Positions 8,916 to 62,396 of a DNA stretch of 64,000 bases are shown here, one piece after another. The first letter of the stretch is position 1. Each line of letters begins with the position of its first letter. Both the position numbers and the translations under genes were made by a program. The notes below the pieces were generated by a model, which was not told where the DNA came from, did not search any database, and saw only the letters and a list, made by a program, of their open reading frames with translations. The stretch comes from Myxococcota bacterium. GTDB taxonomy: Bacteria; Myxococcota_A; UBA9160; UBA4427. The stretch is from contig OZ252299.1 in the NCBI GenBank assembly GCA_965250285.1, forward strand, positions 1,568,001 through 1,632,000. Direction: 5' to 3'.

Positions 8916-9037
8916 TCACGCCGAGCTCGCTCGCGCTCGCGCCGATGCCTTTCGCTCTCAGCTCGAGGCCGCTCGCTCTCAGCTCGAAGCCGCTCGCGCT
9001 CAGCTCGAGGCCGCTCGCTCTCAGCTCGAGGCCGCTC
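8916..9037. repeat. 21-bp tandem array copying the 3' end and stop codon of the sugar-reductase gene
   Basis: Unit tcagctcgaggccgctcgctc at 8958, 8979, 9000 and 9021 (the last is the real gene end), with decayed units at 8937 and 8916. Confidence 0.9.
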
Positions 9038-9926
9038 CTGCAACCCGCTCACGCCAGTCGTCGAGCACGTCGTCGAGCGTCGACTCGAAGGCGTGCGTGA
9101 CCTGCCACCCGGTTGCGCTTTCGAGGCGGCGTGCGTCGCCCACCAGCCAGTCGGTCGGCCGGTGGCGGTCGGGGTCGGTCTCGATCTCGGGCCGTACCCC
9201 GGCGCGCCGACACAGCGCATCGAGGACGTCGGCGATGCGCCAACCCCGGCCGCTCGCGACGTTGTACACGTCGGCCGGCACGGCGGGATCGAGCAGACGG
9301 AGATACGCGTCGACCACGTCGCGGACGTCGAGGAAGTCGCGGACCGATTCGAGGTTGCCGACGCGCATTTGCGCGGGCCGAACGCCGGCGGCGATCCCGG
9401 CCACCTGATGGGCGAAGTCGGGCACCACGAAGGTGTCGGTCTGCCCGCGACCGGTGTGGTTGAACGCGCGCACACAGACGACGTCGAGCCCGTCTCGGCG
9501 TGCGAGCTGAGCGAGCTGCTCCGCGGCGGCCTTGCTCCGCGCGTACGGGCTGCGCGGCCTCAGCGGCGTGCGCTCGTCGAAGGGCTCGGCGCCCGGTCCG
9601 CTCGGCGAGTACTGATCGGCCGAGCCGACGACCAGCAGCCGCGCGCGGGGTACGGTGTCGGCGAGCCCCTGCAGGACGGCTCGGGTGCCGAGGTAGTTCA
9701 CGCGCCACGCCGCGCCGGGATCGCGCAGCGAGCGCGCGACCGAGCTCTGGGCGGCGAGGTGGATGATGGCGTCGGGTCGCGCGGCGCCGAAGGCGTGGGC
9801 GACCGCGTCGCGCCGGGTCACGTCGACGTCCTGGTCGGCGGCGCTCACGTCGTGCCCGGCCGCCTCGAGCGCGGGGAGCAGCTGGCCCCCCACGAATCCG
9901 CCGGCCCCGGTCACGTACACGCGCAT
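9021..9926 (-). CDS. NAD-dependent sugar epimerase/dehydratase (GDP-4-keto-6-deoxymannose reductase/Gmd-like)
   Basis: 'VTGAGGFVG', 'HLAAQSSV', YxxxK 'YARSK', 'RAFNHTGRGQ', 'GNLESVRDFLDVRDVV'. Confidence 0.9.
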   Translation of the reverse strand: MRVYVTGAGGFVGGQLLPALEAAGHDVSAADQDVDVTRRDAVAHAFGAARPDAIIHLAAQSSVARSLRDPGAAWRVNYLGTRAVLQGLADTVPRARLLVVGSADQYSPSGPGAEPFDERTPLRPRSPYARSKAAAEQLAQLARRDGLDVVCVRAFNHTGRGQTDTFVVPDFAHQVAGIAAGVRPAQMRVGNLESVRDFLDVRDVVDAYLRLLDPAVPADVYNVASGRGWRIADVLDALCRRAGVRPEIETDPDRHRPTDWLVGDARRLESATGWQVTHAFESTLDDVLDDWRERVAGAASS

Positions 9927-10009
9927 GGCGGCGCAGCGTGCCCCAGAAGCCGAACCGCTGCAATTCGGTACGATCGAGCCGGGCGCCGTGCGCGGCGCGG
10001 GGGGCGAGC

Positions 10010-11017
10010 ATGATCATCGGCATCGCGGGACGCAATGGCGCCGGCAAGGGCGAGGTCGTGGGCTATCTCGCGGATCGCAGCTTCTACGGGCTGTCGCTCT
10101 CCGACGTGATTCGCGACGAGCTCGCCAAGGAGGGCGTCGAGCCGACGCGCGAGGCGATGCTCGACAAGGGCACCGACCTGCGTGCGCAGTTCGGGCCCGG
10201 CGCGCTGGCACTGCGGCTCATCGATCGGCTGATTCCCGACCGCAACTACGCGATCGACTCGATTCGGCACCCGGCCGAAGTCGAGGCACTGCGCGAGAGC
10301 GGACACGGGTTCCACCTCGTCTGGGTCGATGCGCCCCTCGAGGTCCGCTTCGAGCGCATGCGGGCGCGCGGGCGGGCGGGGGATCCCGAAGACATCGAGG
10401 CGATGCGCGGCGTCGAAGCCCGAGAGGCCGGCGGCGATGGCGGAGCCGGTCAACAGCTCGACGCCGTACGCGAGCTCGCCGATTTCGTCGTCGAGAACGA
10501 CGGCGGCTTCGAGCAGCTGCACGAGAAGATCAAGGCCGTCTTTCGCGAGACGCTCTACTTCGATCGGCCGAGCTGGGACGAGTACTTCATGAGCATCGCG
10601 CGGGTGGTGGCCTCGCGAAGCAACTGCGTGAAGCGCAAGGTCGCGGCCGTGGTGACCCTCGACAAGCGCATCATTTCGACCGGCTACAACGGCACGCCCC
10701 GCGGCACGCGCAACTGCAACGAGGGCGGCTGCCCGCGCTGCAATGAGCTGGCACCGGGCGGCACGAACCTCGCCGAGTGCCTCTGCAGCCATGGTGAAGA
10801 GAACGCGATCGTGCAGGCGGCCTTTCATGGCGTGAGTCTGCGCGGCGGCACGATCTACACGACGTTCTCGCCGTGCCTGCAGTGCACGAAGCTCATCATC
10901 AACGCGGGCCTCGCCGAAGTCGTCTACAACAGCCACTACCCCCTTGGGGACGTTGCGCTCTCGCTGCTGGCCGAAGCCGGGGTCGAGGTGCGCCAGTACT
11001 CGCTGCCCAGCGACTGA
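10010..11017 (+). CDS. P-loop NMP-kinase-like domain fused to dCMP deaminase
   Basis: N-terminal 'GIAGRNGAGKG' and 'IDSIRHPAEV'. C-terminal 'RPSWDEYFM', 'STGYNGTP', 'HGEENA', 'SPCLQC'. Confidence 0.9.
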   Translation: MIIGIAGRNGAGKGEVVGYLADRSFYGLSLSDVIRDELAKEGVEPTREAMLDKGTDLRAQFGPGALALRLIDRLIPDRNYAIDSIRHPAEVEALRESGHGFHLVWVDAPLEVRFERMRARGRAGDPEDIEAMRGVEAREAGGDGGAGQQLDAVRELADFVVENDGGFEQLHEKIKAVFRETLYFDRPSWDEYFMSIARVVASRSNCVKRKVAAVVTLDKRIISTGYNGTPRGTRNCNEGGCPRCNELAPGGTNLAECLCSHGEENAIVQAAFHGVSLRGGTIYTTFSPCLQCTKLIINAGLAEVVYNSHYPLGDVALSLLAEAGVEVRQYSLPSD

Positions 11018-11205
11018 TTTCGTCCTGCCACACGCCGATTCCGTCGGGTTTTCGTCCTGCATCGGTCGCTTCGCCGCCGAGATGCACGCTCGCGCTCAAT
11101 CCTCGTCGGCTCACGCCCGATGAGCATGCGAGTCGAGCAGGCAGCCGCGCGGCCGAGAATCGCCGCGCGAGGAGGGGCCCCGTGCGACCCAGCCCGAATC
11201 AGCTC

Positions 11206-60636: not shown

Positions 60637-60730
60637 GGGCTCCGGCGGGCCGGGCTTCGGGGCGATCGCTGCGACTTCGCGTCACGCGCCTGCGCCCACA
60701 GGCATCCCACTCGGCACATCGCTGCCTCGG

Positions 60731-60758
60731 TTGACCGGTTGCGTCGCCGCGGTATCCT
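60731..60758 (+). promoter_or_regulatory. Candidate sigma70 promoter for guaB
   Basis: TTGACC-N16-TATCCT, about 70 nt upstream of the guaB ATG. Confidence 0.45.
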
Positions 60759-60825
60759 GCTGCGCACCGTCCAGAGGCCGCATCGCCAGGGCGGCCGCGG
60801 GCCCCGCCAGGAGCCTCCCCCACAC

Positions 60826-62301
60826 ATGCCTGATGAACGCATCGACGAAGCCCCCATCCTCGAGGGGCTCACGTTCGACGATGTCCTGCTGCAGCCCGGT
60901 GCCAGCGAGGTGCTGCCGAGCGACGTCGATCTGAGGACGCAGCTGACGCCGGACATCGCGCTCAATGCGCCGCTCGTCTCGGCCGCCATGGACACCGTGA
61001 CCGAGCACGAGACCGCGATCTGCATGGCGCAGAACGGCGGCATCGGGGTCGTGCACAAGAACATGTCCGTCGCGCAGCAGGCCGGCGAGGTCGACAAGGT
61101 CAAGCGCAGCGAGTCGGGCATGATCGTCGATCCGATCACGATGCGGCCCGAGCAACGCATCGACGAAGCCCTCGAGCTGATGGAGCGCTACCGCATCTCG
61201 GGGTTCCCCGTCACGCGCGACGGCAAGGCGGTGGGCATTCTCACGAACCGCGATCTGCGCTTCGTGCAGGACAAGTCGGCCGAGATCTCGAGTGTCATGA
61301 CGACCGAGAACCTGGTGACGGTCCAGCCCGGGACGACGATGGAGAAGGCGAAGGAGCTGCTCCATCGACACCGCATCGAGAAGCTGCTCGTCGTCGACGA
61401 CGACGACACCCTCTGCGGCCTCATCACCATCAAGGACATCGAGAAGACCGAGCGATATCCGGACGCCTGCAAGGACGGCCTCGGCCGGCTGCGCTGCGCT
61501 GCGGCCGTTGGCGTCGGGCCCGACCGGCTCGAGCGCGCCCAGGCGCTGGTCGATGCCGGCGTCGACGCGATCTTCGTCGACACCGCGCACGGCCACTCGA
61601 AGATGGTGCTCGAAACCGTGACCGAGCTCGTGCGCACGTTCCCCCAGGTGGCGATCCTGGGCGGCAACGTCGCGACGGGTGAGGGCGCCGAGGCGCTGAT
61701 CAAGGCCGGGGTGCAGGGGGTCAAGGTGGGCGTCGGGCCGGGCTCGATCTGCACCACCCGCGTGATCGCCGGTGTCGGCGTGCCCCAGTTCACGGCGATC
61801 CGCGAAGCCGTGCGGGCCGCGACCCAGGCGGGCGTGCCCGTCGTGGCCGACGGCGGCATCAAGTACTCGGGCGACGTCGTGAAGGCGCTCGCCGCCGGGG
61901 CTTCGACCGTGATGATCGGCTCGCTCTTCGCGGGCACCGACGAGTCGCCCGGAGAGGTCGTGCTCTTCCAGGGGCGCTCCTACAAGGTCTACCGCGGGAT
62001 GGGCTCGCTCGGCGCGATGGCCGAGGGCAGCAAGGACCGGTACTTCCAGTCGAACGTCGAGGCGACCAAGCTGGTTCCTGAGGGGATCGAGGGCCGCGTG
62101 CCGTATCGAGGTGCGCTCTCGACGACGGTCCATCAGATGCACGGCGGCCTGCGTTCGGGCATGGGGTACTGCGGCGCGGCGAACCTGGGCGAGTTGCGGA
62201 CGAAAGCGCGCTTCGTTCGCATCACGTCGGCCGGGCTCCAGGAGAGCCACGTGCACGACGTGATCGTGACCAAGGAAGCGCCGAACTACCGCGTCGAGTA
62301 G
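60826..62301 (+). CDS. guaB: IMP dehydrogenase
   Basis: 'LTFDDVLL', 'SAAMDTVTE', CBS pair, 'DTAHGHS', '[11 protein letters not shown]', 'YRGMGS', 'VPEGIEG'. Confidence 0.98.
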
Positions 62302-62396
62302 CGCGCACCCGCGCCAAGCGGCCGCGTCGAGTAGCGCGCACCCGCGCCGAAAGGCCGCGTGGAGTAGCGCGCACCCGCGCCGAACGGCCGCGTCGA
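62278..62396. repeat. 33-bp tandem array copying the guaB 3' end and stop
   Basis: ccgcgt(c/g)gagtagcgcgcacccgcgcc at 62289, 62322 and 62355, with a partial copy at 62388. Confidence 0.92.

Follow-up and report, generated by a model that had tools for sequence, protein, structure and literature searches.

Locus-unique tandem repeats at gene 3' ends in a Myxococcota genome as probable survivors of a genus-wide duplication process with narrow unit lengths

The source genome of the window (G000, 95% complete) carries about 70 unrelated head-to-tail repeats at the ends of its genes, which belong by structure (head-to-tail units longer than about 10 bp, each at a single locus) to the class of bacterial minisatellites or VNTRs. 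These arrays are locus-unique copies of local DNA, and they probably survived purifying selection after a genus-wide and chromosome-wide process of duplication that prefers unit lengths of about 38 and 77 bp; a duplication system aimed at stop codons is not the likely reading. The arrays themselves are probably near-neutral, and their value would lie in the mutation record that they keep: one genome offers about 180 independent duplications with narrow size modes in coding and non-coding DNA, and the rules of survival appear simple, the stop being spared, the start punished and the junction kept in frame.

Within the window, which is the whole stretch of 64,000 nucleotides that was analysed, Tandem Repeats Finder (TRF) recovers all five arrays described in an earlier, sequence-only reading (Table 1), and no other non-coding TRF array is present under the predicted gene calls. 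In all five the first unit comprises the last codons and the stop of the gene, as that reading had it. The units were also said to be mutually unrelated, which agrees with 0 cross-matches among 101 units of at least 30 bp, 100 of which match nowhere else in the genome; the folP unit derives from local DNA. The decay of copies with distance from the gene was found only in the 21-bp array (four near-identical units and two decayed distal ones) and in the MglA-like array, and failed in guaB, where copies 2-4 have a common two-base change missing from the gene; in the tsaE array decay is non-monotonic with distance. The suggested addition of copies at the gene side did not hold up: among 34 arrays, the proximal pair was the more similar one in 17, the less similar in 11 and tied in 6 (p=0.075), and polar growth from the gene side was rejected as too weak. 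An intragenic array of the same length class as the gene-end arrays lies distant from the stop. The window is above the genome average in arrays, with 3 against 0.9 expected in a strict test (P=0.06).

Table 1. Repeat arrays of the window and the genes that carry or adjoin them.
Feature	Coordinates	Strand	Remarks
In-frame intragenic array, 36 bp x 4.9	4892..5065	(-)	Acidic linker of DUF1302 gene (3508-5214)
21-bp array at epimerase gene end	8916..9041	(-)	Six units
NAD-dependent epimerase/dehydratase (sugar) gene	9021..9926	(-)	Stop (9023-9021) inside first repeat unit
folP (dihydropteroate synthase)	24094..24954	(+)	
folP-cdaA junction array, 77 bp x 4.8	24906..25271	(+)	Unit is folP tail plus cdaA head
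cdaA (diadenylate cyclase)	25259..26143	(+)	Start within last unit of 77-bp array
tsaE	30189..30620	(+)	
tsaE array, 25 bp	30607..30756	(+)	About six units; a seventh, faint unit extends to 30781
Small GTPase gene ("MglA-like", label of the sequence-only reading)	47053..47706	(+)	Weak ATP_bind_1/Arf matches
MglA-like array, 36-39 bp, 3.5 units	47697..47825	(+)	Distal decay; missing in G001
guaB (IMP dehydrogenase)	60826..62301	(+)	
guaB array, 33 bp x 3.6	62278..62396	(+)	

That the arrays are artefacts of assembly is hardly credible. G000 is one contig for which the sequencing technology is not stated, and the supporting runs (X1, X2 and X3) come from a single study that is possibly the source of the assembly; against this, the artefact is already contradicted for three arrays, since run X1 yields, for the array at tsaE, for that at the MglA-like gene and for that at guaB, one Logan contig that crosses the whole array with 0 differences. 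Run X2 likewise spans the guaB array and run X3 the MglA-like array, while the folP array is represented in X1 by four exact pieces across or inside it, none bridging; the comparison with read contigs covered these four arrays. De Bruijn contigs match copy-specific letters exactly, the copies are diverged, and the separately assembled congener has the same pattern. Copy number showed no variant joints in the runs of this one study, and differs between congeners as one copy versus many.

In this congener (G001, 83% complete) arrays occur at a similar rate and at other genes, and in other genera the rate is about threefold lower. All 10 comparable G000 arrays are missing in G001, all 9 comparable G001 arrays are missing in G000, and stop-spanning arrays common to both congeners were not found; the comparison of related genomes proposed earlier sets arrays against single copies at orthologous sites, as at the 21-bp array, whose orthologous G001 site has none. 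The arrays arose independently in the two congeners. No gene-end duplication was found at any of 29 guaB loci of relatives. Look-alike stretches were not found in the other genomes of the survey.

Genome-wide, TRF array edges compared with random placement confirmed the expected enrichment at stop codons: the stop lies in the gene-side unit of 58 of 158 arrays, where 200 random placements give an expectation of 6.0 (maximum 15), and in the far unit of none of the 158. This enrichment, together with the independent origins in two congeners, bears out the recurrent process proposed from the window. About half of the non-coding arrays (69/136) span a stop, and they do so in 69 different genes of ordinary length and codon score. 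Per 100 kb of opportunity, the density is 40.9 for stop-spanning loci (63 of 180), 16.8 for junction loci (6), 5.7-10.9 for intergenic loci (60), 4.3 for start loci (7; start codons are predicted and imprecise, so that this class may be undercounted) and 0.85 for coding loci (44). The idea that array edges sit at stops survives only as this enrichment of stop-spanning arrays, the stop not being pinned to the unit edge or to any position inside the unit, and no common motif was found at array edges. In convergent gaps the density of arrays over a stop is 3.1 times that of wholly intergenic arrays (30 vs 8, p=0.003), an excess for which tolerance alone cannot account. Both kinds are equally diverged (p=0.98), by which a faster decay of intergenic arrays was rejected, and the density of microhomology around stops is flat, without a rise.

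It is doubtful, though worth weighing, that this excess marks a termination-linked hot zone, in which ribosome release at the stop would leave a naked transcript or a stalled RNA polymerase, and repair after an R-loop or replication conflict would copy the gene's terminal stretch a second time. Such a bias keeps some probability on account of the 3.1-fold excess in convergent gaps, and it would fit the duplication of gene ends rather than gene starts (88 vs 11), the peak of unit starts 12-50 nt upstream of the stop (29-45 per 100 kb, vs 6-15 downstream) and a slight excess of head-on genes (40/69, p=0.029). The head-on excess, however, was one among many tests and had p=0.068 in a larger set, downstream hairpins were not in excess (p=0.29), Rho and Mfd are present as in relatives, the stop has no fixed position within the unit, and intragenic arrays distant from stops have the same length modes.

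The lengths of non-coding units (n=136) fall into 35 at 18-29, 78 at 30-47, 3 at 48-69, 20 at 70-84 and 0 at 85-100 bp, so that clusters at 30-47 and 70-84 bp are separated by only 3 of the 136. The in-frame coding arrays, mostly in low-complexity linkers distant from stops, number 1 at 27-30, 20 at 33-45, 1 at 48-69 and 3 at 72-84 bp; because these intragenic repeats have the same length modes, the duplication process is not restricted to gene ends. The 77-bp units are not dimers of 38, an internal half repeat being missing in 23 of 23 units of 70-84 bp. We tentatively consider, as a possibility of less than even weight, that a DNA-copying or repair step in the genus, with a built-in ruler (about 38 nt, and twice that length) and a bias to translated DNA or gene ends, writes tandem duplications of local sequence.

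Under the preferred reading of filtered duplication, the leading guess at a mechanism is an event coupled to replication, such as slippage or the processing of lagging-strand flaps, with the length set by the footprint of a protein. Coding DNA and its edges would gain duplications at about threefold the rate of plain intergenic DNA, an input that is assumed because tolerance alone leaves the stop-spanning excess, the equal divergence and the flat microhomology. Intragenic duplications would be lost unless they keep the frame within a flexible linker. Duplications that cover a start codon would mostly be lost as well, because an upstream start is added; those over an overlapping stop and start would survive if a mini-ORF relay is kept, and those over a stop would persist, with the protein left intact. 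The available text of PMC3689786 makes the same argument of tolerance for Yersinia pestis VNTRs over stops. From two copies on, slippage by units or unequal exchange among the free downstream copies would likely expand and homogenise the array.

Stops in downstream copies are kept no better than adjacent triplets (60/73 vs 120/146) and show no frame preference (27/26/24), and back-up stop codons were rejected for want of a frame or conservation signal; a link to terminators was likewise rejected, with no folding excess in the units or downstream. The arrays are thus very unlikely to be fixed-size devices kept by selection (protein-binding or nucleoid spacers, 3' stabilisers or back-up stops), as proposed for the constant-size repeats of Bacillus. 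The narrow length modes despite unrelated sequences would suit such devices, as would the frame rule at junctions, and PMC8161180, in its available part, argues for selection on size in Bacillus; opposed to them are the lack of any stop array common to the congeners, the decay of stops in copies like their neighbours, the folding excess that was not found (p=0.11) and the ordinary length and codon score of the carrier genes.

At gene junctions an in-frame relay of mini-ORFs is present in 12 of 13 arrays (three genomes), with overlaps of 1, 4 or 8 nt; 2 of the 12 relays are present on both strands, and the frame rule counts for less if junctions arise at microhomologies, where the chance expectation of an in-frame unit is 0.55-0.77. 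The folP-cdaA array holds four 26-codon mini-ORFs (starts at 24951, 25028, 25105 and 25182), the stop of each overlapping the next start by 4 nt, and its junction in G001 has one such 4-nt overlap only. Multiplied by three, the junction rate comes close to the stop rate, which we would expect if one frame in three survives. The frame rule suggests indirectly that, in an uncultured lineage, selection acts on translational coupling between overlapping genes. A MIRU is defined by a unit that encodes a mini-ORF overlapping the neighbouring stop and start, which holds here for the junction subclass only, and mini-ORF coupling was reportedly proposed for mycobacterial MIRUs by Supply et al. in 1997. 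MIRUs are also a dispersed homologous family, and no such family was found among the 101 units compared.

The sequence-only reading knew of no named system for these arrays; stop-overlapping VNTRs and MIRU-type junction repeats are, however, already published. According to the available part of PMC3689786, 10 of 88 Y. pestis VNTRs overlap stop codons and 6 overlap starts, and the ORF reportedly stays as it was when the copy number over a stop changes. These too are locus-unique tandem repeats, some lying over gene ends; here, in contrast, a stop lies within about half of the non-coding arrays, and units are longer and in two narrow modes. Mycobacterial MIRU-VNTR/ETR loci have, in the accessible portions of PMC2734929, PMC4213456 and PMC2413405, tandem units of 40-100 bp between operon genes, with loci missing in related species and a senX3-regX3 unit of 77 bp, to which the folP-cdaA array corresponds in unit length and overlapping mini-ORF relay; MIRUs are a dispersed family of related sequences, whereas the present units are unrelated and locus-derived. 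The Bacillus repeats of 20-21 and 52 nt resemble ours in a fixed unit size without sequence conservation, a patchy distribution across taxa and an unexplained origin, and differ in their sizes and in forming families within a species; "stop codon" does not occur in the available text on them (PMC8161180). In the present genome the units are clear copies of the gene ends at their own loci, and this speaks for a ruler of mutational origin. If real, a ruler step would explain constant-size, variable-sequence repeats (52 nt in Bacillus, 57/77 nt in mycobacteria), and such sizes would be the footprint of a lineage-specific protein, not a selected function; whether a replication or repair protein sets the size of fixed-size, unrelated-sequence repeats becomes testable. 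Dispersed REP/MITE elements were rejected (no folding excess, no edge motif, units unrelated). Our literature search found no account of gene 3' ends being duplicated across a genome under a size rule; work possibly relevant to novelty includes Supply 1997, Smittipat 2005, Collins 2005 (Ehrlichia ruminantium) and Subirana 2020.

For the genes named here, gene content was compared by domain presence and open frames. No RVT_1 match was found in the 95% complete G000, the control being positive in 3 of 14 genomes, by which the RNA-templated copying once suggested finds no support and retroelement-made duplications were rejected. MutS, MutL, the Pol I 5' exonuclease, ExoVII, SSB, three Y-family polymerases, Mfd and Rho are present as in relatives; Ku was not found in G000 or G001, nor in 30 of 41 genomes, and the histone fold was not found in 5 of 5. 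The predicted co-occurrence of a reverse transcriptase or repair-gene loss did not appear in this comparison, nor did any gene gain or loss tracking the genus. CRISPR repeats and repeat-plus-spacer units have lengths similar to those of the present units, and G000 has a solo Cas1. That a process driven by a reverse transcriptase or Cas1 writes the copies is nonetheless highly improbable: besides the unmatched RVT_1, G001 (83% complete) shows the same pattern although no Cas1 was found there, and the units have no variable spacers. The arrays are not CRISPR arrays either, as the repeated sequence takes up each unit entirely, no CRISPR array was found and the Cas1 gene stands 1.6 Mb away.

The overhangs of 74 young arrays measure at most 2 nt in 20, 3-8 nt in 11, 9-16 nt in 12 and above 16 nt in 31, where the 99th percentile by chance is 6 nt and ancestral arms are not recoverable. 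In microhomology-mediated tandem duplication, MTD (bioRxiv 10.64898/2026.02.28.708716, available part), DNA present once becomes a head-to-tail pair that later expands, a process linked to Okazaki flap processing in yeast; its mark would be microhomology arms that stood at the junction beforehand. The 23 of 74 arrays with overhangs of 3-16 nt resemble it, those with shorter (20/74) or longer (31/74) ones differ, and that part of the source gives no fixed length modes and does not contain "stop codon".

The long partial last copies of those 31 young arrays could also be scars of DNA capture, in which incoming DNA (by transformation or on an integrated element) would anchor in a conserved gene end, re-supply that end and leave a short foreign piece that is later tandem-amplified; we judge this unlikely. 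The missing part of partial copies resembles neither flank in 8 of 28 tested, the unit at luxE-luxC contains 27 nt missing in G001, and at G000 4774294-4774571, read by eye, the stop now in use comes from a 38-nt segment, and most differences between the gene and the last partial copy fall at third positions. Against capture, 13 of the 28 segments resemble a flank, the 20 arrays with the shortest overhangs are clean whole-number duplications, a pN/pS of 0.66-0.74 is what a coding copy paired with a neutral one would give, rather than two alleles, edges share no motif and intragenic arrays are left unexplained. Donors of the extra segments elsewhere in the genome were represented by only short, chance-level matches among the matches listed.

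Integration and excision that regenerates the 3' end, as once suggested, is disfavoured by the same lack of an edge motif and the same pN/pS between gene tail and copies. Scars of att sites of integrative elements were rejected, the 69 genes being different and ordinary, the copies directly adjacent and without a motif. A minority of arrays with foreign-looking inserts forms a possible exception.

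The Myxococcota genome under study (G000) consists of one contig of 6.25 Mb with a G+C content of 68.6%, on which 5162 genes were called with a self-trained model that places stops reliably and starts less so. Tandem arrays at its gene ends are real, genome-wide and elevated in the genus. Among the 158 arrays counted with Tandem Repeats Finder (TRF; score of at least 80, at least 2.5 copies), the gene-side unit holds the stop codon in 58, against 6.0 expected (maximum of 15 in 200 placements), in line with the recurrent placement at stop codons proposed in the sequence-only reading; the far unit holds it in none of the 158, and a start codon lies at the array edge in 12 (6.4 expected). 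An independent detector for units of 18-100 bp returned 180 loci (63 stop, 6 stop-plus-start, 7 start, 60 intergenic and 44 coding), corresponding to 40.9, 16.8, 4.3, 5.7-10.9 and 0.85 loci, respectively, per 100 kb of opportunity. Of 4851 genes, 88 have a second copy of their last 30 nt within 200 nt downstream (inner control 1) and 11 a second copy of their first 30 nt upstream (control 2). Units contain anything from 3 nt of coding sequence to coding sequence throughout, with a skew towards more coding (KS p=0.005), and head-on genes are slightly over-represented among carriers (p=0.029 and 0.068 in two sets).

All five arrays named in the sequence-only reading were reported by TRF at the coordinates given there, and inspection confirmed that the first unit of each contains the last codons and stop of its gene. 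In profile searches the folP, cdaA, tsaE and guaB products pass NCBIfam cut-offs, the sugar gene encodes an NAD-dependent epimerase/dehydratase, and the MglA-like gene gives weak GTPase matches only. Contigs of a public read run (X1) cover the tsaE, MglA-like and guaB arrays from end to end with zero differences and are identical to pieces of the folP array, the supporting runs coming from a single study that may be the source of the assembly itself. Downstream guaB copies have a common change that the gene itself lacks, and the folP copies fall into groups 1-2 and 3-4, which indicates that amplification took place among free copies. In the congener G001, folP and cdaA are joined by a single 4-nt overlap, and the 77-bp unit therefore derives from this junction; the array holds four 26-codon mini-ORF relays. 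The guaB gene end is duplicated in none of 29 relatives, three of which carry short simple repeats directly after the guaB stop. The acidic DUF1302 repeat, which has a similar counterpart at the matching place in G001, may be older than the split of the two genomes, unlike the stop arrays.

Tandem arrays and other features (window positions, or genome and stretch coordinates)
Feature	Location	Description
Sugar gene array	window 8916-9041	21-bp unit
folP-cdaA array	window 24906-25271	77-bp unit
tsaE array	window 30607-30781	25-bp unit
MglA-like array	window 47697-47825	36-39-bp unit
guaB array	window 62278-62396	33-bp unit
DUF1302 repeat	window 4892-5065	in-frame, 36 bp
DUF1302 repeat, G001	L109:1374-1435	36 bp
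Stop-supplying array	G000:C1:4774294-4774571 (-)	79 bp x 3.5
Perfect-copy array	G000:C1:3496436-3496719	78 bp x 3.6
Hairpin-plus-T tandem	G000:C1:6191975-6192114	54-bp unit, ~3.5 kb past tRNA-Ile/tRNA-Ala pair
tRNA-Ser tandem	G000:C1:4567456-4567567	44-bp unit between two tRNA-Ser genes
G013 arrays	L144:1-310; L140:17-119	64-bp units, unrelated, at contig starts
Solo Cas1	L180:4574-5845 (G000:C1:3245574-3246845, +)	423 aa, cysteine-rich C-terminal tail
Exonuclease	G000:C1:5088888-5089379 (L107)	5'-3', stand-alone, flap endonuclease-like
Long-lag intergenic loci	G000:C1 1096153, 1539235, 5069502, 5764131 and others	four with 135-bp lag, two with 119 bp

The stop and junction arrays seen in 875 kb of G001 number 10, of which about three are questionable, and in the 30-nt test 9 of 612 genes have a repeated end. 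For six other genera the counts are 3 arrays (1.6 Mb searched) and, in the 30-nt test, 7 of 1204 genes with a control of 2; a Fisher test against G000 gives p=0.001. The samples are small, and repeats are lost from fragmented assemblies; these counts indicate a trait present at a low level across the order and about threefold higher in the genus of G000 and G001. Individual arrays are not shared: of 70 G000 carrier genes, 10 have an ortholog in the G001 DNA compared, none with the array, and the same array was found at none of the 9 G000 orthologs of the 10 G001 arrays.

The arrays most likely represent ordinary tandem duplication filtered by selection. If coding DNA received duplications at the stop rate, an in-frame insert would have to be tolerable at ~6% of coding sites, and the rate for junction arrays would be roughly one third of that for stop arrays; we infer that both figures fit the measured rates. 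Of 13 arrays at overlapping junctions (9 from G000, 3 from G001, 1 from a third genome, G035), 12 encode a mini-ORF whose end overlaps the following start by 1, 4 or 8 nt; the chance per array is 0.33, or 0.55-0.77 should microhomologies set the junctions. Copied stops in plain stop arrays are conserved no more than neighbouring triplets (60/73 versus 120/146) and show no frame preference, and pN/pS between gene tail and copy (0.66-0.74) is as expected of one coding and one neutral copy. Duplication plus filtering accounts neither for the preferred unit lengths nor for a threefold stop bias. In convergent gaps, which offer no promoter to disrupt, the density of stop-spanning arrays exceeds that of wholly intergenic arrays 3.1-fold (30 versus 8, p=0.003), an excess for which neither array age nor microhomology density accounts.

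In published work, the same tolerance argument is made for Y. pestis VNTRs, of which 10 of 88 lie over stops and 6 over starts (PMC3689786), and mycobacterial MIRU/ETR loci are operon-internal repeats of 40-100 bp, 77 bp at senX3-regX3 (PMC2734929, PMC4213456, PMC2413405). The junction arrays function like MIRU, but they do not behave as a dispersed family. Also described are Bacillus repeats of constant size, variable sequence and unexplained origin (PMC8161180), satellites with unique long units in other prokaryotes (PMC6749651), microhomology-mediated tandem duplication as the proposed general birth route (bioRxiv 10.64898/2026.02.28.708716) and, across 5374 prokaryotes, enrichment of repeats on both gene sides (PMC12418385). 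The literature searched, covering part of the key repeat papers, gave no account of size-ruled gene-end duplication.

The suggestion that copies are added on the gene side was not upheld: the proximal pair is more alike in 17 of 34 arrays, less alike in 11 and tied in 6 (p=0.075). First copies carry 42 private changes against 65 in last copies; there is thus some decay with distance from the gene, though a mild one. Nor did a search of G000 link the pattern to a reverse transcriptase, of which none was found, or to repair-gene loss, eight repair or transcription families being present as in relatives; Ku and the histone fold were not found. The solo Cas1, which may be casposase-like, lies directly after a tandem group of five paralogs that encode a small membrane-like protein. 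No further cas genes were recognised in its neighbourhood, the genome showed no CRISPR array, and no Cas1 was found in G001. Besides Pol I, G000 encodes a second 5'-3' exonuclease, which would be of relevance if flap handling sets unit length.

A long partial last copy ends 31 of 74 young arrays. Its missing part is flank-like in 13 of 28 tested arrays and not flank-like in 8; old seeds with continued turnover could yield such a pattern, and capture of foreign DNA is conceivable for a minority of the arrays. In the 79-bp array, a 38-nt segment unlike either flank supplies the present stop, and an in-frame TAG follows the last partial copy, which may be the original gene end. The last 28 nt of the 78-bp unit match neither flank.

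The units are unrelated in sequence, with no cross-matches among 101 of them. Unit lengths are nonetheless ordered: non-coding units in G000 number 35 at 18-29 bp, 78 at 30-47, 3 at 48-69, 20 at 70-84 and 0 at 85-100, and the 22 of G001 fall within these ranges as well, including single units of 48 bp and 77 bp. The long units are not dimeric. In-frame arrays within genes, mostly in low-complexity linkers, show the same modes (20 at 33-45 bp, 1 at 48-69, 3 at 72-84), indicating that the duplication process acts far from stops too. The 64-bp class is empty in G000, and the two arrays of G013, from the sister genus, one of them (L144) unique within its genome, hint that preferred lengths differ by lineage. 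None of the long-lag intergenic loci covers a stop; they may represent a dispersed element present in tandem.
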